Virus record (IMG/VR): IMGVR_UViG_2541047702_000001
Direction: 5' to 3' (one strand)
DNA from: a virus
Taxonomy: Duplodnaviria; Heunggongvirae; Uroviricota; Caudoviricetes
Length of the DNA: 36,638 nucleotides
The position numbers and the translations under genes are program-made. This document shows, piece by piece, positions 2,417 through 31,332 of the stretch. The notes under the pieces are model-generated. The model made no database searches. It saw only the letters and a list, made by a program, of their open reading frames with translations, and was not told where the DNA came from. The first letter of the stretch is position 1. The number at the start of each line of letters is the position of its first letter.

Positions 2417-4602
2417 GAAACTTCCCCATTGGTTGAAAATATAGCTCCTCCAACGCCAAGTGTATTTCGTGTTGTGCTCAACCTCAGAGGGCTGGAGTCA
2501 GAATTAGAATATCCTGTAGCAGAAATAAAAGATCCTCCACTAATAGTCAACTGCGGAACATCGGCTATATCTGAATAAGTTCTGTCAGCAACAGTATTAT
2601 TTATAGCCACATATGATCCAAAAAAACTTCTTATTGTTTGGTTTTTAACTTTACTTCCTTCAATGGTTATCCTACTACCACAGTCGGCAATAAATCCTGA
2701 ATCTGCATCCAGCGTTGCATTCATAAAAGAAGCTTCAGATCTCTCTACATCAATCCATCTAATATCTTTTGTGGGATTTGCACCAAATACATGACAAATA
2801 TTAGAGTTAAACCTTACACCATCTTGGAGGTGCATTAATTTTTTTATATCTGTACCCCATAGCCTTGGAAAATTAACAGATGCTCCTGCATGGCAATCAA
2901 ATCCCAGCTCAGCCCCTGAGATATCTACAGCCTTTCCTGAAATAACAGCACCAGTGTCTGCATTAACGGCTGTTCCACAATTGCGCATATCATTACCAGC
3001 AACATCAACGCAACCCGCACCATCAATACGCACACCAAGTGCACATCCATAAAAACCTTTTTCAATATTTGGTTCAAGGACTTTACCACTTGTTTCTGCA
3101 TCACTTTCTTCAACGTCATGTCGTCTTGCATCAACATATGCTGTATGAATGCAGGTTAATCCACGATATGAGCAATGTATAGTTTTATGGTCGCGTATAT
3201 TAACATTTGAACCATCTCTTACATTCCATCCTATATAACAATAGCTTGCACTTGACCCCTGAAAATCTGCTTTAACATTATAAATACAATTAACTGACGC
3301 AACCGTACTCTCTGTGCACCGTTCAAACTTGCTTACAGGCATTGATGCCTTGACATTATTTACCAGTTGCAGGGAAGAGTATCTGCTATAAGAAAAATCA
3401 CATACGTAATACCCTTCTGGCATATATGCAGCAACACTTTCCTCATCAGGAGCACATCCGGTATGATATGCACTAATTTTTGCACCAAAACTACCATGAA
3501 TTCCAACGTAGAACTTTCGAGCACCTGAATACGGATAGAAATTAAGTTCAGCTTTTTGAGTTACAATAAATGCACAAACATCGCTATCATCTCTATTTTC
3601 TTCGATCTGAATAGCAAATACAGGACTTTTTGCTGCATCGCAAATGTAAAATAAATACTTGTATTCGTAATACGTTCTAACGATTTTAGTAAACAAACGA
3701 GTGTCAGAGAAAACCACTGAGTCTTCTGATGTTATTTTAATCCAAGACAAATCAACACCTGAACTGAATTCAATTTGATAGTTGATAATATGCCCGGTCT
3801 TAATTCTTATTTCGCAGAAAGCATTACCACCATCCCACATAGGTCTCATTGACTGGGCTGCAATGATTGCATCTTTGAGTGTAGGGTAATCACCCCATTC
3901 GCCAACAGTAATAACAAAAGTATAATATGAGTTAAAAACAGCGGCATTTTTGCCTTTGGATATCAACTCCTTAATCATAAAAATATTATCTTCGTAATCA
4001 CAAGGAGAAATTATATCCCTCATTTTGCTTTGAAATGTTCGTTGTCTTGCCCCGCTTCCTGACGGTATAAACCAACCAAAACCACCAACAACCCCGGCGA
4101 TTGCAGCATCGACATAATTACGCATTGAGCGATTATTTACAGCGTCCTGCTCAAGTGATGGATCTGCAAGGTTAGAAATTCTGTTTTGCTTTGCATCGTA
4201 ATATTTTGCAAGCAAAGATGGTTTCATCAATGCACGTCTGAACCACCCGAAACATCGCTGGATCAGCATCGTCAGGTAGTCAAATGCATCCTCATGAACT
4301 TCGGGGAAAAATTTTCCCTGATTGCGAAGATCAGTCTCCTGCACCACATCAAGCACACGCTCTATCGTAATTCGCCATCCAGCAGCAAGCGGCGACGGGA
4401 GAACCACTTCACCGCCACTATAAGTGCCCGCTCCAGTTACCTTATAACCGGTATCCAGAACCAATTCTGTTACGTTCCCGTTCAGGTCAGACACCTGAAC
4501 AACCAGGTCGGTTTTTTTGAAAATACGGAAGGTATACGGAAATGATGTCGTAACGCCGTTACCGGTGTATTCGTTGTGGTCAACTTCGGTTGAGACCGTC
4601 AT
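2413..4602 (-). CDS. Tailspike / receptor-binding protein with conserved N-terminal virion-attachment domain and C-terminal Cys/Gly-rich probable beta-helix domain
   Basis: 729 aa; N-terminus MTVSTEVDHNEYTGNGVTTSFPYTFRIF... matches the N-terminal domain I recall from epsilon15/phiV10-type tailspikes; GGAG Shine-Dalgarno 8 nt upstream of ATG 4602; C-terminal 500 aa rich in Gly, Cys, Asn, Ser. Confidence 0.7.
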   Translation of the reverse strand: MTVSTEVDHNEYTGNGVTTSFPYTFRIFKKTDLVVQVSDLNGNVTELVLDTGYKVTGAGTYSGGEVVLPSPLAAGWRITIERVLDVVQETDLRNQGKFFPEVHEDAFDYLTMLIQRCFGWFRRALMKPSLLAKYYDAKQNRISNLADPSLEQDAVNNRSMRNYVDAAIAGVVGGFGWFIPSGSGARQRTFQSKMRDIISPCDYEDNIFMIKELISKGKNAAVFNSYYTFVITVGEWGDYPTLKDAIIAAQSMRPMWDGGNAFCEIRIKTGHIINYQIEFSSGVDLSWIKITSEDSVVFSDTRLFTKIVRTYYEYKYLFYICDAAKSPVFAIQIEENRDDSDVCAFIVTQKAELNFYPYSGARKFYVGIHGSFGAKISAYHTGCAPDEESVAAYMPEGYYVCDFSYSRYSSLQLVNNVKASMPVSKFERCTESTVASVNCIYNVKADFQGSSASYCYIGWNVRDGSNVNIRDHKTIHCSYRGLTCIHTAYVDARRHDVEESDAETSGKVLEPNIEKGFYGCALGVRIDGAGCVDVAGNDMRNCGTAVNADTGAVISGKAVDISGAELGFDCHAGASVNFPRLWGTDIKKLMHLQDGVRFNSNICHVFGANPTKDIRWIDVERSEASFMNATLDADSGFIADCGSRITIEGSKVKNQTIRSFFGSYVAINNTVADRTYSDIADVPQLTISGGSFISATGYSNSDSSPLRLSTTRNTLGVGGAIFSTNGEVS

Positions 4603-4776: not shown

Positions 4777-4797
4777 TTATTGCATGGAGAAGATAAG

Positions 4798-5055
4798 ATG
4801 CAGCAGTATCACTATCCACTGGAAGACGGATTTACCGAAAGGATTCACACGCCGGGAGGCGTCAGGTCACTGGTGGAGGGATCGCACTTGATGAAATTAC
4901 TCCGGGATCTCGATAAGGATGGATTTAATGTCGATGGCCCACTTGCCGAACTGACTGCACTGATTAACTATGTCACCAGCTCACAGATGTCTATGCAGGA
5001 TCTGCAAACACATCTCGACTATTGTGCCGAACAATTACGAAAACAAACCCGGTAA
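4798..5055 (+). CDS. Small LexA-regulated protein, candidate SOS-inducible antirepressor (function inferred from context only)
   Basis: 85 aa, ATG 4798 with ribosome-binding site; LexA box over its promoter; followed by a bidirectional terminator; opposite in orientation to all flanking genes. Confidence 0.5.
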   Translation: MQQYHYPLEDGFTERIHTPGGVRSLVEGSHLMKLLRDLDKDGFNVDGPLAELTALINYVTSSQMSMQDLQTHLDYCAEQLRKQTR

Positions 5056-19368: not shown

Positions 19369-19661
19369 TCCTGTTCACTGGCCTCTTTGGCCATCTTCAA
19401 ATACTGTTCAGGGCAATGCGCCATAACGCGCTGAAACAGTTCCAGCGCCAGATTGCGTTGCCCCTCATTAAATGCCATTGCCATAGCGTCCATCGGTGAG
19501 ATAGCGGAAAACACACGGCCTTTCTCCAGCACCGACCAGACAACGCGACGCCCCTGTTCACTGCTCATGACAAAGCGAATGTCATCAATTTCACGCTGTG
19601 CCATGTCACATTGCTTACGGGCGTTTTCTTCTTTCAGTTGATCATCTTCGTAATCTGTCAT
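19365..19661 (-). CDS. Hypothetical small acidic protein between portal and scaffold
   Basis: 98 aa ORF with overlapping start/stop to neighbours. Confidence 0.4.
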   Translation of the reverse strand: MTDYEDDQLKEENARKQCDMAQREIDDIRFVMSSEQGRRVVWSVLEKGRVFSAISPMDAMAMAFNEGQRNLALELFQRVMAHCPEQYLKMAKEASEQE

Positions 19662-21337
19662 TGTGATTGCCCACCCTGACCACTAACTGCATTCGCCATA
19701 GCTGACAAAACACTCGGCTCCGAAGTTTTAGCTTCGCTTAGCGTCTTGGCACCCTGTGCCGCCGCCATCCCCATCGCCATCATTTGTTGCTGCTGTTGTT
19801 GCTGTGCCCGTTGCTGGCGAGCCTGCTCAACCTGTTCCTGCGGAACAATGACGGTTGGAGACACTCCGGACATATCAGCGAATGCATCGATCGCCTGATC
19901 AACGTTGAGTTTGTCGAGAGCTTCTGGTTTCGCTTGCGCAAGTTGACCAATGAAGTTAACCGTGGACGCCAGACTGGACAGGCCGATAGACTTCTGCGCC
20001 TGAGCCATGACGGAAATGTATTCGACCTTCAGGGGCATGCCTTCCATCGCGTCAGGCGGTGGCGGCAACATGTTTTTACGCACCATCATCGAGAAAGTGC
20101 GGTCAATGAGAGGATTAAGACATTCGTCGTTCAGACGCTCCAGAACTGGCCCCAACATCAGAAGCTTTTCTTCTTTCATTTCGATCACTGCTTCAACAGG
20201 CATCGAGCGGGTATTGATGTTCTGCAACATCATGAACAGATCGACAAAGTAGGCGCTGTTAATGATTTGGCGGGTGTCCTGAATGTCTGCTACCAGATCT
20301 GCTGTACTGGGGTTAACCAGATAAGCAGGCCTGAAACCATCCTGACCAGTAATCTGATCGATATACGTGATGTCGCCAGGAAGAAGGGAGGCGCGCTGAT
20401 TCTTGAGGGAAGTCGGAGCAACCATCGGCGGATTGGTGGCTTTATCAATCAACTGCGACTTGCGCTTCTGGAGAAGCTGCAATGCCTTAACAGGTCCAAG
20501 CGCCAGCATACCAGGGCATGATGATCCATAAACATCTTCGCCGTTAACTTCCCAGCGCGGAGCCATAATTGGAAACTCATCGAATCCGGACTCACGCAAC
20601 AACTTGTCGTTATCGCCACCAACCTCGTAATAAACCGATTTGAATGGCTTGTTCTTGCTATCCAGCTTCGATGTATCGCGGTCAATGTTCGGGTAAACCG
20701 AATGCATCACTTCAATCCACTTCTCGTAGGTGCCGCTTTCCCACATGCTTTTTACGGATTCGCTGACGTTATTTAGCCCGAACTCCTGAACAAGCTGACG
20801 AACAGTCATAGAGAACTTGCGAAAACAGGTGTCCACACTGCCACGAGGTGAGTTAGCCAGGTAGTAACTGCCTATAGGGAATGGCATTGTGCGAATGATG
20901 TCCTCGTCATCCTCCAGCACCGCCATTGCACCAGTGCTGTATGTGCCGAGGCTTCCGTATAACTGCGGCAGCGACTGATAGAGATTCGACTTATTGAACA
21001 TATCGTTCATGCGGTTCTGCACCGCCTCAAGCCACAACTTAACAGGGCCATAATCCATCATTTCAGGATCTGGCGTAGCCAGGCGAAACCACGGACGCGC
21101 GGGGCTTGTGATGCCTGACATCATGCCGCTGGCGAGAGTGCGCGCCGCCATAGTCCCGGTCGAATCAATAATGCGTGTATTCCGTCGATCGTTACGGTTG
21201 ACCTCAGAAGTCAGAAAGCGGGAACCACGCGGGTTGATGTAATCACTCAACTCGCGCCAGTGCGGCTCGAACGACTGACGCTCGCTTTCAAGTTGTGCGA
21301 ACTGTTTGTTCAATCGCTCTTTAGTTGTTTCCGCCAT
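19658..21337 (-). CDS. Portal (head-tail connector) protein
   Basis: 559 aa, first large gene of the virion module after terminase, GGAG Shine-Dalgarno 8 nt upstream; C-terminal poly-Gln/Ala low-complexity tail. Confidence 0.6.
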   Translation of the reverse strand: MAETTKERLNKQFAQLESERQSFEPHWRELSDYINPRGSRFLTSEVNRNDRRNTRIIDSTGTMAARTLASGMMSGITSPARPWFRLATPDPEMMDYGPVKLWLEAVQNRMNDMFNKSNLYQSLPQLYGSLGTYSTGAMAVLEDDEDIIRTMPFPIGSYYLANSPRGSVDTCFRKFSMTVRQLVQEFGLNNVSESVKSMWESGTYEKWIEVMHSVYPNIDRDTSKLDSKNKPFKSVYYEVGGDNDKLLRESGFDEFPIMAPRWEVNGEDVYGSSCPGMLALGPVKALQLLQKRKSQLIDKATNPPMVAPTSLKNQRASLLPGDITYIDQITGQDGFRPAYLVNPSTADLVADIQDTRQIINSAYFVDLFMMLQNINTRSMPVEAVIEMKEEKLLMLGPVLERLNDECLNPLIDRTFSMMVRKNMLPPPPDAMEGMPLKVEYISVMAQAQKSIGLSSLASTVNFIGQLAQAKPEALDKLNVDQAIDAFADMSGVSPTVIVPQEQVEQARQQRAQQQQQQQMMAMGMAAAQGAKTLSEAKTSEPSVLSAMANAVSGQGGQSQ

Positions 21338-21351
21338 TTCAATGACTCCGG

Positions 21352-21558
21352 TTACTGACCAAGCAGCGTTTTACCGCTGGTATTAGCGGTTGATGTGTCG
21401 CCCTGAGAACCGGTAAGCAGCGTAGAACTACGACCAGCAGCAGCGCGACGGCGACGTGTTTCTTCGTCGCGGGCATCAACAACGGCGGCATCCTGCTCCT
21501 GTGGTGCTACCTGAACTTCTGGTGTTGCAGGCACTGATGGTGAGCTCCCCATGCACAT
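21352..21558 (-). CDS. Small hypothetical protein upstream of portal
   Basis: 68 aa; the initiation region CGGAGTCATTGATATG duplicates that of the portal gene (CGGAGTCATTGAAATG). Confidence 0.35.
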   Translation of the reverse strand: MCMGSSPSVPATPEVQVAPQEQDAAVVDARDEETRRRRAAAGRSSTLLTGSQGDTSTANTSGKTLLGQ

Positions 21559-21637
21559 ATCAATGACTCCGTACGCAATTAAATTATTACCAATTTAACC
21601 ACATATGATTTATTTATCGTAGATAGTTGACATTTAA

Positions 21638-21652
21638 CGCACAAATTATTAC
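21638..21652. promoter_or_regulatory. Operator-like palindrome TTACC-TTTCA-GGTAA (exact), with TTGACA -35-like hexamer 17 bp upstream
   Basis: Exact motif; TTGACA at 21616-21621; lies in the intergenic region between portal-operon start and the tRNA unit. Confidence 0.55.
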
Positions 21653-21983
21653 CTTTCAGGTAAGCAAAGGGTTCATTCCGGTTATTAACCTGACTGGCTT
21701 GTCGTTAAATTGAACAGGTGGAGTGAGCTTTTATTTTGAGCAGTACGGCGTATGGCACATGCGCCGATAGCGGTCTGGATACGTTTAAGGGGCACCCTCC
21801 CTTGCTCGGGCAAACGAACCAGGTAGCCGGAATGTGCAAGCCCCGTTCATATCGTCGGACCGAGGACTCACCATCCTGGCGATTCGGTGTGACGCCTCGG
21901 AAGAGACGAGGGTACAACGATGAGAGCATTTATGGAGCCGCGACAAAGTGTGGCGCCTTAACAGGCTAAGTGCTCTCAGCGTT

Positions 21984-22060
21984 GTGGCATTAGCTCAGTT
22001 GGACAGAGCAACCGCCTTCTAAGCGGTTGGTCGCAGGTTCGAATCCTGCATGCCACGCCA
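21984..22060 (+). tRNA. tRNA-Arg, anticodon UCU (reads AGA)
   Basis: Manual cloverleaf: acceptor GTGGCAT/ATGCCAC, D-stem GCTC/GAGC, anticodon stem ACCGC/GCGGT with loop CTTCTAA, T-stem GCAGG/CCTGC with loop TTCGAAT, discriminator G and encoded CCA; 77 nt. Confidence 0.85.
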
Positions 22061-22104
22061 GAATCACGCCTAAGGACCGTGATGCCAGAAGTTCCAGGTG
22101 CTTG

Positions 22105-22146
22105 GCGGTGATAGTTTCCCTTGAAGGACTATCACCGCCCTTTTTA
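22105..22146 (+). terminator. Rho-independent terminator downstream of tRNA-Arg
   Basis: GGCGGTGATAGT ... ACTATCACCGCC perfect 12-bp stem followed by CTTTTT. Confidence 0.75.
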
Positions 22147-22223
22147 CAGCAGGACGCCATTGCGATGACTTCATGCTGTAAACCCGTACAGCCACGGAAG
22201 GCATAACTCATTGCTTCCAGTTC

Positions 22224-22247
22224 GCCCGGTTCGCCGGGCATTTTTTT
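22224..22247 (+). terminator. Terminator-like hairpin (GCCCGG-TTCG-CCGGGC then T7) ending 1 nt before the gp49-like ribosome-binding site; candidate attenuator
   Basis: 6-bp GC stem, tetraloop, 7 T; ends at 22247, AAGGTGAG follows at 22248 and ATG at 22259. Confidence 0.6.
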
Positions 22248-22258
22248 AAGGTGAGATT

Positions 22259-22633
22259 ATGAACGACCAGCAAATCGAAAAAGAAATCGTTGAGAAAGGC
22301 AAAACGGCACCGCGTGTAACACCCGAGAAAATTGAAGGCCTCATTTGCAGTGAGCATTTTTTCACTGCTGCGCAGGGTGACCACCAGGCTAAAGAAGATG
22401 ACCTTATTTATAATCCGGAGCCTTATGTCGAAGCCACCCCTGATGCTCTGCACCTTCTCACTTTCTGCGTACTGGTGCTGAAGAATGGCTTCACCGTCAC
22501 CGGAGAGAGTGCCTGTGCAAGCCCGGAAAACTTTGATGCAGAAATTGGTCGGAAGATTGCCCGGCAGAATGCTGTAAACAAAATCTGGATGCTCGAAGGT
22601 TACTTGCTGAAGCAGAAGTTAAGCGAGCAATAA
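22259..22633 (+). CDS. Gp49-like phage protein (N4 gp49 / Sf6 gp66 family, recalled), function unknown; moron-type insertion
   Basis: 124 aa; ribosome-binding site AAGGTGAG; opposite orientation to flanking structural genes; family assignment from recalled motif LTFCVLVLKNGFTVTGESACASPENFD, unverified. Confidence 0.5.
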   Translation: MNDQQIEKEIVEKGKTAPRVTPEKIEGLICSEHFFTAAQGDHQAKEDDLIYNPEPYVEATPDALHLLTFCVLVLKNGFTVTGESACASPENFDAEIGRKIARQNAVNKIWMLEGYLLKQKLSEQ

Positions 22634-22723: not shown

Positions 22724-24199
22724 TTAAGCATAAGGGTCATAATCCGTTATGGCCCTTCCCTGCTGGCTTTGCTGTCCTGGTATATTTATGCGTTTCGAGA
22801 CCGGGAAAGCAAACGTCAGCAGTAGCGCATCGCCTTTACCAGGAGAACGCCCAAGACGCTCTTTGATATCTTCCTTCGGTTCGATAACGATTTTACCGTC
22901 CACACGAACTTTGTACTCTGCCGCCGACAGGTCGTCTGCAGTTTCCTGGTCATCCAGCATGCCGCCCAGCCTCAGCCATGTCTTACATGAGTTGAACATC
23001 TCCCCACGCTTGTTAAGCATCTGCGGGTCAGTGGACGCACCGCCGAACGGAACAAGTTGCCATGTACGTCCCCAGCCATCACCGATTGACTTCAAACCGG
23101 TTCCATAACCGAAGTCGATGAACACCGCGTCAGCCTGATACTGGTCTTCAAAGTCAGCGATACGCTTCGCCATAATCAGATCGTCGGTGGTCTTGTTACC
23201 AGTCCATAGCACCTTACTGTGCAGCCCCTGCCGCAGGTATATCACAGCGTCATCAACGCCGGAGTATGCCGGGTCAACGCCGATTATCACCGGAGCATGT
23301 GCAACCTGCGCAGCGGTTACCACCCGTTTCATTGCCTCGTCAGTAAGGCCGGTAGGGATAAACTGCAATTCAGATGCATCCGGGAATATGCCGCGCACAC
23401 GGATTTTAACGAAGTCGCTGTCTTCCCCGTAGTCATCAACCCATTTCTGCAACTGCTGTTTGTTAGTGCCTTCCACCGTCCGGCTGTCAATCTGCGCAGT
23501 TTTCCAGCGGTGTTTATATTTGCGGAAACATTCGCGGAAACGCCCGGTGTTACGTGTAGGGTTTCCGAATGCCACCCAGATAATCTCAGTGTCTTCGTCC
23601 GTCAGCGCACCCTCTGCTACCTCCCACACCAGATCGGCAATGTTGGATGCTTCATCGAATACCACGATGATACGCTTACGCTCGTTGTGCAGCCCGGCGA
23701 ACGCCTCTGTGTTGTGCTCAGACCACGGTATTGCGTCAGCTCGCCAGCGCTTGTCGTGGCCTGGGTCATTGCTGTACATCGCCGTGGCGGTGCAGGTGAA
23801 CCACTCTTTCGTGATAGCCAGATTCGACCATTTGATGATTTCCGGCCATGTCTTGGTGCGCAGCTGGTTGTCGGTGTTGGCGGTCACCACGACCTTACAA
23901 TCCTCGCAAGTGGACATGCCCCAGTTGATCAGCATTGAGATGAATGCGGATTTACCAATACCGTGACCAGAAGCGCGTGCCAGCATAAGCGGCTGATATC
24001 GCGTCTCTGGATTCTGCAGGTGATCACGTATCTCTCGGAACGCATCGGCCTGCCACTGACGTGGACCGGTGGCATGTGCCAGTTCAGTCCCCTCTTCCCC
24101 CCACGGGAACGCATAGAGGGCATAACCAAGCGGATCGTGAGTAAACCCTGCAATATCCTCGATCAACTGCTCTTCAGGAGATAACACTGTATCTGTCAC
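22724..24199 (-). CDS. Terminase large subunit
   Basis: 491 aa; P-loop-like ASGHGIGKS near the N-terminus, acidic residues typical of the nuclease half; overlaps small subunit stop; precedes portal module. Confidence 0.75.
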   Translation of the reverse strand: MTDTVLSPEEQLIEDIAGFTHDPLGYALYAFPWGEEGTELAHATGPRQWQADAFREIRDHLQNPETRYQPLMLARASGHGIGKSAFISMLINWGMSTCEDCKVVVTANTDNQLRTKTWPEIIKWSNLAITKEWFTCTATAMYSNDPGHDKRWRADAIPWSEHNTEAFAGLHNERKRIIVVFDEASNIADLVWEVAEGALTDEDTEIIWVAFGNPTRNTGRFRECFRKYKHRWKTAQIDSRTVEGTNKQQLQKWVDDYGEDSDFVKIRVRGIFPDASELQFIPTGLTDEAMKRVVTAAQVAHAPVIIGVDPAYSGVDDAVIYLRQGLHSKVLWTGNKTTDDLIMAKRIADFEDQYQADAVFIDFGYGTGLKSIGDGWGRTWQLVPFGGASTDPQMLNKRGEMFNSCKTWLRLGGMLDDQETADDLSAAEYKVRVDGKIVIEPKEDIKERLGRSPGKGDALLLTFAFPVSKRINIPGQQSQQGRAITDYDPYA

Positions 24200-30747: not shown

Positions 30748-31332
30748 ATGAAAAGTATCCAGGACGTCCGCAGGCAAAATCTCAACGACTTGATCGACCG
30801 TGAATTCAATGGTGTTCAGACGCGGATGGCAGAAAAACTTGGAACTCAGGCAAATCTGGTAAACCGCTGGGCTCTTGGCAAGAAGGTTATCGGCGACCAG
30901 GTTGCGCGAAAAATTGAAGCTGCCGCCAATAAACCCCGTAACTGGCTTGATATCGATCGCTCGCTTTCTCAGGAAGGTTTTCAGCCTGTCGGCCCAAGCG
31001 ACATTGGTCAGCTGGCGGCTCACAACCTGGAACGCTGGATGAGCGAAAGCCGCGACCTTTCAACACAGGGAAAACTTCACCGCGCATCCGGCGTCGCCCA
31101 GGTGACAATCAGCCGCCTGTTAAACAATGAGGTCAGCGTTTCCATTTCCACCCTGGAGAATGTTGCATCCGCATTCGGGCGTCACGGCTATGAATTACTG
31201 ATTCACCCGCACGACCCTGCGACCATCAACTATGACCGCTCGCGCTACGCATTGTTACCCGAAACCGAGAAAGCAAAGATCGAAAGTTACATTGAATTTG
31301 TCATCAACCAGAACGAAAAAAACAAACAATAA
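30748..31332 (+). CDS. Prophage repressor (CI-position) with two tandem XRE-type HTH domains and no recognisable S24 peptidase domain
   Basis: 194 aa; two HTH-like segments (about residues 20-70 and 95-150); C-terminus lacks Ser/Lys peptidase motifs; followed by terminator and a second operator cluster; weak ribosome-binding site (possibly leaderless-like). Confidence 0.6.
   Translation: MKSIQDVRRQNLNDLIDREFNGVQTRMAEKLGTQANLVNRWALGKKVIGDQVARKIEAAANKPRNWLDIDRSLSQEGFQPVGPSDIGQLAAHNLERWMSESRDLSTQGKLHRASGVAQVTISRLLNNEVSVSISTLENVASAFGRHGYELLIHPHDPATINYDRSRYALLPETEKAKIESYIEFVINQNEKNKQ

Follow-up and report, generated by a model that had tools for sequence, protein, structure and literature searches.

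In lambdoid phages that lack N, HK022 (putL/putR) and HK639 (a putL-like RNA) carry protein-independent structured RNAs directly past a repressor-controlled early promoter, with terminators lying further downstream. The put element is short (~70 nt, two stem-loops), the HK639 element measures 126 nt, and put antitermination requires that the RNA remain tethered to polymerase. ROOL and GOLLD, by comparison, are large ornate RNAs of phages and prophages that often lie beside tRNA genes and have no known dedicated protein partner. Processing defines yet other RNAs: P1 c4 and P4 CI are matured by RNase P, and 3'ETS-leuZ derives from a tRNA-punctuated transcript. Finally, DicF (Qin), the dicF-like region of P1 and lambda PreS/LPR1 are noncoding RNAs embedded in repressor-controlled early operons, from which they are freed by host RNases; RNAs of the DicF/PreS type are short (50-90 nt), Hfq-dependent, act by base pairing and have a terminator. 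DicF is one sRNA that originates in an early-left phage operon and acts on the host. Lambda PreS/LPR1 is another (10.1101/2024.10.31.621285).

Here we describe a compact structured RNA, referred to below as the core, that shares individual features with each of these systems and that, with high confidence, we regard as a real and new RNA family. It was found in a stretch of 36,638 nucleotides (the window), an Escherichia coli prophage of the phiV10/epsilon15 type (Uetakevirus), in which a rightward unit with tRNA-Arg(TCT) and a Phage_gp49_66 ORF is set between the leftward portal operon and the terminase (Table 1). The 702 bases around the region share 96-98% identity with phiV10, with O157 typing phages 9 and 10 and with ~500 E. 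coli chromosomes in a similarity search. The original prediction had singled out positions 21559-21983 as a GC-rich, structured stretch ahead of the tRNA. That stretch subdivides into a promoter with an operator palindrome, a leader, the 166-nt core and a long hairpin (H) that abuts tRNA-Arg. It is not uniformly GC-rich, since the promoter and leader (21500-21799) have a GC content of 0.40-0.43, and the structured part (21700-21999), at ~0.56, does not exceed its flanking genes. The tRNA itself was identified as expected, and the data support the view that the earlier reading was essentially right but that a tRNA leader does not describe the region in full: a discrete 166-nt module, whose family reaches into lambdoids and P1, is present together with a separate hairpin.

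Table 1. Features of the rightward unit and its surroundings, in window positions
Feature	Position	Strand	Remarks
Portal gene	19658-21337	-	
68-aa ORF	21352-21558	-	ends the portal operon; start at 21558
Predicted sigma-70-type promoter	21627-21655	+	-35 TTGACA 21627-21632; 17-bp spacer; -10 TACCTT 21650-21655
Operator-like palindrome ATTACCTTTCAGGTAA	21648-21663	.	ATTACC-N5-GGTAA; overlaps the -10 and the predicted start
Leader	21662-21745	+	poorly conserved; indels relative to epsilon15 and SPN1S in the alignment
Core RNA	21746-21911	+	166 nt; four helices and an H-type pseudoknot; ~160-187 nt across the family
Core P1	21746-53 / 21759-66	+	loop GGCAC
Core P2 base	21774-78 / 21819-23	+	variable tip with UCCCUUG motif
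Core invariant junction GGUAGCCGGAAUGUGCAAG	21822-21840	+	19 nt
Core P3	~21841-62	+	variable region
Core P4	21863-66 / 21874-77	+	
Core pseudoknot P5	21869-72 / 21886-89	+	CACC / GGUG
Core P6	21895-99 / 21907-11	+	loop GAAGAGA
H hairpin	21915-21984	+	CAACGAUGAGAGCA ... UGCUCUCAGCGUUG; variable tip; last base is G1 of tRNA-Arg
tRNA-Arg	21984-22060	+	anticodon TCT; CCA encoded; ARAGORN; Rfam tRNA model 73.3 bits
tRNA trailer	22061-22145	+	hairpin 22063-22083, linker, terminator T1 (22104-22139 and U run); terminator scan
Intrinsic terminator T2	22224-22246	+	directly before the ribosome-binding site of the Gp49 ORF
Phage_gp49_66 ORF (PF13876)	22259-22633	+	sole protein gene of the rightward unit
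Large terminase	22724-24199	-	

Read from the sequence, transcription of the rightward unit is predicted to start at ~21662. The -35 hexamer, the 17-bp spacing and a TACCYT -10 recur in epsilon15, SPN1S, Tyrion and a Klebsiella relative (L106), while the sequence between and after the hexamers drifts among these four. A simple consensus promoter scan did not report the promoter, because its -10 matches the consensus at only three of six positions. The palindrome that overlaps the -10 is strongly over-represented, with 20 strand matches to ATTACC-N5-GGTAA (~11 sites) in the whole window against 0.38 expected. Its sites (4706, 21648, 24791, 24809, 28308, 28370, 30292, 30677, 31389, 31451 and 36474) include positions on both sides of an ORF for a Cro/CI-type HTH protein (30748-31332) and near the replication genes, and the epsilon15 record annotates a repressor site at the position equivalent to the palindrome at 21648-21663. 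From this recurrence and from the sites flanking the HTH ORF, the palindrome looks like the phage's putative dispersed repressor operator, comparable to the C1 operators of P1, and the rightward unit would accordingly be a repressor-controlled transcript. The TTGACA promoter with an operator that had been proposed for this region is thus corroborated, both by its conservation in epsilon15 and SPN1S and by the recurrence of the palindrome. The 3' part of the leader (GGUGGAGUGAGCUUUU...) is similar to the 3' half of a hairpin of the H type, which Klebsiella relatives have in full (cf. the upstream sequence in L142).

The case for the core as a structured RNA is carried mainly by covariation across homologues, because the fold of the single sequence beats chance only moderately (z = -2.45 against shuffles, with 2 of 200 shuffles as low). 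The invariant blocks of the core (UGGCACAUG, AGCGGUC, GGUAGCCGGAAUGUGCAAG, UCACCA, GGCGAU, GGUGUGAC and GGAAGAGA) are separated by stems that vary in both length and sequence. Helices were proposed from this pattern of change and then tested on 47 sequences with mutual identity below 96%. Standard pairs fill 94.8% of the 1216 helix cells, compared with 85.1% in shuffled alignments and 30-52% when the partner strand is slid out of register. Half of the core pairs (13/26) change on both sides, and compensatory cells number 109 as opposed to 31.8 ± 6.2 in shuffles, none of 500 of which scored as high. Individual exchanges are found in every supported helix: P1 pair 8-20 is GC in 25 sequences and AU in 20; P2 pair 34-89 is CG in 31 and UA in 15; P4 pair 143-155 is CG in 36 and GC in 10, and its pair 145-153 is AU in 31, UG in 10 and CG in 5; P6 pairs 177-190 and 178-189 give further clear examples; and the pseudoknot pair 148-168 is CG in 43 sequences and AU in 4. 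G-U pairs are frequent, at 9-19 (45 sequences) and 32-91 (46 sequences) and also at 142-156 and 6-22, and because these would read as A-C on the opposite strand, the functional strand is that of the tRNA (+). A structured noncoding RNA on the tRNA strand, and covariation among related phages as the way to recognize it, had both been anticipated, and both held. Of the general marks of a structured noncoding RNA, compensatory helices were found in the core and in H alike, and strand-specific G-U pairs in the core.

A covariance model of the family (R1) scores the window core at 151 bits and full-length matches in differing surroundings at 119-169 bits. An independent RNAalifold run on the model-fitted alignment recovered P2, P4 and P6; it also proposed that the P1 loop (GCACAU) pairs with the junction AUGUGC, and since both sides are invariant, covariation neither supports nor excludes this contact. 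For P2, the alternative UCCGG/CCGGA from RNAalifold on the raw MAFFT alignment was dropped in favour of UCYRG/CYRGG, which shows compensatory changes. Sequences that share only 70-80% identity elsewhere agree at every position of the 19-nt junction; part of this invariance comes from the sampling, since an exact search with this 19-mer supplied most of the loci. A second scan, which used P1 and the following junction as its anchors, returned ~40 real loci, most of which keep the 19-mer and at least two of which carry a single substitution in it.

No described RNA family accounts for the core. In a scan of the window with all 4227 models of Rfam 15, the tRNA was the one match, and a scan of the 1-kb region placed nothing on 21559-21983 even at E <= 10, as the original prediction, unable to name a family, had led us to expect; the core of 18 homologous loci likewise went without an Rfam match. 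Searches of the literature with diagnostic 11-16-mers in DNA and RNA spelling, and with keywords, found no description of the core, nor is it covered in the papers on the Pas sRNA, Minerva, P1vir/hfq and PreS. Homology to HK022 put or the HK639 putL-like RNA was also tried with R1, filters off, and rejected, the best scores being 6.4 bits in the HK022 immunity region and 4.8 bits in HK639, including its putL-like RNA.

The family is nonetheless widespread in enteric bacteria. In a similarity search, ~245 nt (21745-21987) share 70-94% identity with DNA of unrelated phages, comprising three groups of carriers: lambdoids (mEp460, cdtI, mEp390, Stx2c and some Stx2a phages, and one phage deposited as a Stenotrophomonas phage); the P1 group (P1, P7, D6, SJ46 and 591 mostly non-mobilizable, P1-like plasmids); and other Uetakeviruses. 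With the core alone as query, about a third of complete E. coli genomes (1837/5426) were matched, and a single genome may carry as many as four copies. A further ~200 loci came from viral, genome and metagenome collections; two MAG contigs among them bear the label Bacillota or Oscillospiraceae, and every other source belongs to Enterobacterales. A metagenome scan with the P1-J pattern, about two thirds of whose matches were due to chance, yielded no markedly divergent relatives. Among 185 cores, 39 have a tRNA-Arg ~63 nt downstream, 27 have a tRNA-Ile2 13 nt upstream (the P1 type) and 119 have no adjacent tRNA. This distribution argues that the core is an autonomous RNA and not the 5' leader of a tRNA operon; of the two options first offered for this region, a structured leader or a small RNA, the unannotated structured RNA therefore stands and the mere tRNA leader does not.

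Every context examined places the core within a predicted early transcript under repressor control. Of the 128 loci with enough flanking sequence, 60 have a repressor gene as the closest same-strand neighbour upstream. In mEp460, a terminator comes after the repressor gene, then two TTGC-N7-GCAA sites overlapping a TTGCAT/CATAAT promoter, then the core; operators of this type are found in OR as well. mEp390, which belongs to another immunity type, has GTAAG-N4-CCTAC sites both in OR and in the interval from cI to the core. These operators, common to OR and the core promoter, identify the core as the first element of the PL transcript in both phages, where it lies ~55 nt downstream of the cI-controlled PL, in the place of lambda nutL-N or the HK639 putL-like RNA. 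In P1, the core belongs to the C1-controlled ban operon, between trnI and ban, and this operon holds the dicF-like region as well. Some copies have a hairpin and a convergent gene immediately after the core. One lambdoid prophage (L029) carries two cores after cI on the - strand (3990-4155 and 4797-4960), each convergent with a membrane-protein ORF on the opposite strand, one of them SieB (PF14163); the second core has changes at otherwise invariant positions and may be decaying. In epsilon15 (L001 2811-2903, aligned with window 21746-22145), the promoter, P1 and half of P2 are kept and lead directly into the 3' half of T1, the core, H and tRNA having been lost through a deletion that fused the UUCCCUUGAUGCU copy of the P2 tip with the one in the T1 loop. 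Since epsilon15 is viable without it, the function of the core is dispensable.

Several neighbouring features of these loci merit mention in their own right. Hypothetical proteins are annotated over the tRNA, core or H region in phiV10 (PhiV10p04, L006 3257-3508, - strand), mEp460 (mEp460_037, L002 2943-3311, - strand) and Tyrion (gp54, L009 2101-2262, + strand), and all three calls are probably spurious. A C4 antisense RNA and isrK lie next to the Rha gene in mEp460 (L002 706-894, - strand) and in the Stx2c phage, and an int-alpA RNA is found further down the RNA island of Tyrion (L009 3098-3162).

Downstream of the core, the order of core, H, tRNA or tRNA-shaped module, trailer and terminator recurs at other loci. 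The stem of H has undergone compensatory change, with both GC (21 sequences) and AU (18 sequences) found at pair 252-399; the tip of H is hypervariable, and 76.7% of its cells are paired in an alignment of which about a quarter of the rows lack H. The 3' strand of H (GUGCUCUUU or GUGCUCUCA) resembles the boxA of rrn operons; we rejected a boxA role because this strand is base-paired and the motif is kept in only half of the copies. At one locus (L091), an exact rrn-type boxA, UGCUCUUUAACAA, lies ~30 nt past a core-only copy, after the hairpin downstream of it; L035 and L048 have GCUCUUUAA. These likenesses to boxA may be a coincidence, the sequence coming from the end of a convergent gene. The P1 ban operon (L005, NC_005856) has three further H-type hairpins on the + strand (3005-3100, 3198-3342 and 3502-3593), each followed by GGUGAAUGC(R)CAGGCUGAUG. 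Opposite them, the other strand is annotated with the CDSs plp and upl, which are either doubtful ORFs or protein genes overlapping RNA genes.

Precisely where the window has tRNA-Arg, mEp460 (L002 3240-3378) and Tyrion (L009 2172-2300) have a tRNA-shaped module (module X) that comprises an acceptor-like stem of 7 bp (GUGGUGA/UCACCAC), hairpins resembling a D arm and a T arm, and a long variable arm. ARAGORN calls no tRNA on this module, and the P1 copy gives a weak STnc100 match (33 bits, below threshold). The trailer of the window tRNA folds better than chance (z = -3.06) and looks like an sRNA of the 3'ETS type; the loop of T1 contains UUUCCCUUG, a motif found in the P2 tip as well, and a UCCYUU motif resembling an anti-Shine-Dalgarno sequence is common to the P2-tip and T1 loops across the family. 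At the trailer position, some relatives (L011 2131-2250, L012 and L060) have UGCUGUGUGUAGUCUU, a sequence common to the host sRNA RprA, with an Rfam RprA score of 50 bits against a threshold of 70. Between T1 and T2, positions 22146-22247 form two conserved hairpins that end in T2 and appear sRNA-like; a RyhB-like match of 18 bits in this interval is not significant.

Set beside the known systems, the core most resembles the put elements in position, lying just past a repressor-controlled early promoter with terminators further down. Yet at 160-187 nt and with a pseudoknot it is larger and more elaborate than put or the HK639 element, shares no homology with them, and is found in P1 and Uetakeviruses too, at sites with no obvious need for antitermination. 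Like DicF, the P1 dicF-like region and PreS/LPR1, it is a noncoding RNA within a repressor-controlled early operon; unlike the DicF/PreS type, it is large and pseudoknotted, mostly lacks an adjacent terminator, and has a conservation pattern that resembles a binding surface and not a seed. An Hfq-type base-pairing sRNA was accordingly rejected, the first terminator in the window lying ~190 nt past the core and conservation spanning the junctions and loops of the pseudoknotted fold; complementarity between the core and the phage's own genes reaches at most 9-10 nt, the level expected by chance. ROOL and GOLLD are likewise phage-borne and tRNA-adjacent but are three to five times larger and belong to other bacterial phyla, and the scan of all Rfam families gave no match to either, provided that both models are in this release. 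As with P1 c4, P4 CI and 3'ETS-leuZ, a tRNA or tRNA-shaped element abuts the core, so that tRNA-processing enzymes would set its ends, but two thirds of the core family have no true tRNA adjacent to them.

Our preferred reading, which we advance tentatively and at less than even confidence, is that the core is a trans-acting RNA that binds a conserved host factor after its release from a polycistronic RNA operon. This operon is ordered as predicted repressor-controlled promoter, leader, core, H hairpin, tRNA-Arg, trailer hairpin and terminator, with the core as its first module, and would be transcribed early, once the repressor leaves. Cutting by RNase P at the 5' end of the tRNA, probably together with RNase III or RNase E at H, would then free the core as a discrete, stable RNA, whose 5' end in P1 would be set by 3' processing of tRNA-Ile. 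The invariant single-stranded and junction nucleotides may form a surface for a macromolecule that is conserved across Enterobacterales, and the core could act in trans as a protein-binding decoy or modulator, aiding early lytic development or countering host defence. We favour action in trans because the core is autonomous across contexts, because its flanks (tRNAs, H hairpins and the tRNA-shaped module) are substrates of host RNases, because its conservation resembles a three-dimensional binding surface and not a pairing seed, and because RNAs from early operons that act on the host have precedent in PreS and DicF. Against this reading stand the viability of epsilon15 without the core, the shortness of any complementarity to the phage's own genes, and the location of the core in mEp460 and mEp390, which speaks for a role in cis.

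The main rival, which we judge unlikely, holds that the core acts in cis as a processive antiterminator like HK022 put or Bacillus EAR, the nascent RNA binding polymerase and enabling it to read through terminators and Rho sites before the first protein genes. The exact nutL/putL position in mEp460 and mEp390, both N-less, favours such a role, as does the repressor gene so often found just upstream on the same strand. No recognizable N follows the core, the first ORF having neither a Pfam match nor an arginine-rich N terminus, and at 66 of 101 loci, the window with T1 and T2 included, at least one strong terminator (-18 to -22 kcal/mol) separates the core from the first same-strand ORF, with no evident promoter past T1/T2. 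An untranslated stretch of more than 500 nt at the start of an operon would, moreover, invite Rho, and the invariant surface would suit binding to a conserved machine such as RNA polymerase. These points must be set against the dissimilarity of the core to the put and putL-like RNAs in both sequence and structure, the absence of a second copy from the PR operon, and the organization of two of the carriers: in P1, the one clear terminator in the ban operon precedes the core, with none between core and ban, and in the window the unit comprises one small ORF before running head-on into the terminase gene, so that strong read-through looks undesirable. Additionally, a tRNA directly downstream would cut the RNA off polymerase. 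A sensor resembling a riboswitch in the leader of the early transcript, coupling a small-molecule or ion signal to read-through, would explain the aptamer-like conservation (invariant junctions, covarying stems), the location at the 5' end of operons and the hairpin with a U-rich stretch that some copies have within 20 nt downstream. We nevertheless consider it improbable: no expression platform was found, as the 3' strand of the core has no alternative pairing with a terminator and T1 is ~190 nt away, the core is followed by elements as varied as the H hairpin, a tRNA, ban or a convergent gene, and the downstream genes, which differ by context, have no function in common. A self-cleaving or otherwise catalytic RNA that helps to cut the polycistronic RNA operon into its parts is scarcely more credible. 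The pseudoknotted fold, invariant junction nucleotides and variable peripheral stems would fit a ribozyme, and so would the changing gene contexts in phages, beside RNAs that need processing; however, no Rfam ribozyme model matches, host RNase P, RNase III and RNase E already account for processing, and no conserved cleavage-site signature could be defined.

Two further explanations would deny the core a role as RNA. That it is a DNA-level element acting as single-stranded DNA, for example as a priming signal or other site, draws on the P1 copy, which lies just upstream of the helicase gene ban, and strikes us as very improbable, given that the core everywhere stands behind promoters with operators, ahead of terminators and on one fixed strand relative to transcription, that the pseudoknot covariation and tRNA punctuation fit an RNA, and that no link to known origins was found. 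A small protein gene, in the window a 77-aa ORF on the + strand or a 74-aa ORF on the - strand, has almost negligible probability. Positions 21559-21983 hold just short overlapping ORFs (42-77 aa, both strands), as was first noted in finding no convincing ORF there. Frames open from end to end do exist in 54 of 126 distinct cores on the + strand and 95 of 126 on the - strand, and the mEp460, Tyrion and phiV10 records contain hypothetical CDSs; such open frames are common only because the core is GC-rich. No reading frame is conserved among the 126 cores, as the spacing between conserved blocks takes all values modulo 3 (64/34/28 from the P1 loop to the junction, 42/27/57 from the junction to the GGCG block). 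Sequence changes are paired and compensatory, not concentrated at third positions, the 19-nt block lacks synonymous variation, and PGAP left the matched stretch blank in 58 of the 60 listed E. coli records, with a 'hypothetical protein' in the other 2.

A broader proposal, which is speculative and to which we assign a fairly low probability, is that the core represents a new class of RNA-only effector, made first on derepression by temperate enterobacterial phages, either as a polymerase-binding antiterminator that takes the place of N/nut in N-less lambdoids or as a neutralizing decoy for a host factor or defence that sits beside counter-defence tRNAs in an 'RNA island'. What was found is a ~170-nt pseudoknotted RNA with a 19-nt invariant junction, overlooked by annotation in P1, in Stx phages and in one of every three complete E. 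coli genomes, all of them heavily studied. It would give Rfam and annotation pipelines a new family, and its inclusion would clear away falsely called 'hypothetical proteins', mEp460_037 and Tyrion gp54 among them. For the biology of these phages, the core is a candidate answer to the question of how N-less lambdoids transcribe through the terminators of their early-left operon, or else a candidate for a host-takeover or anti-defence factor made of RNA alone.
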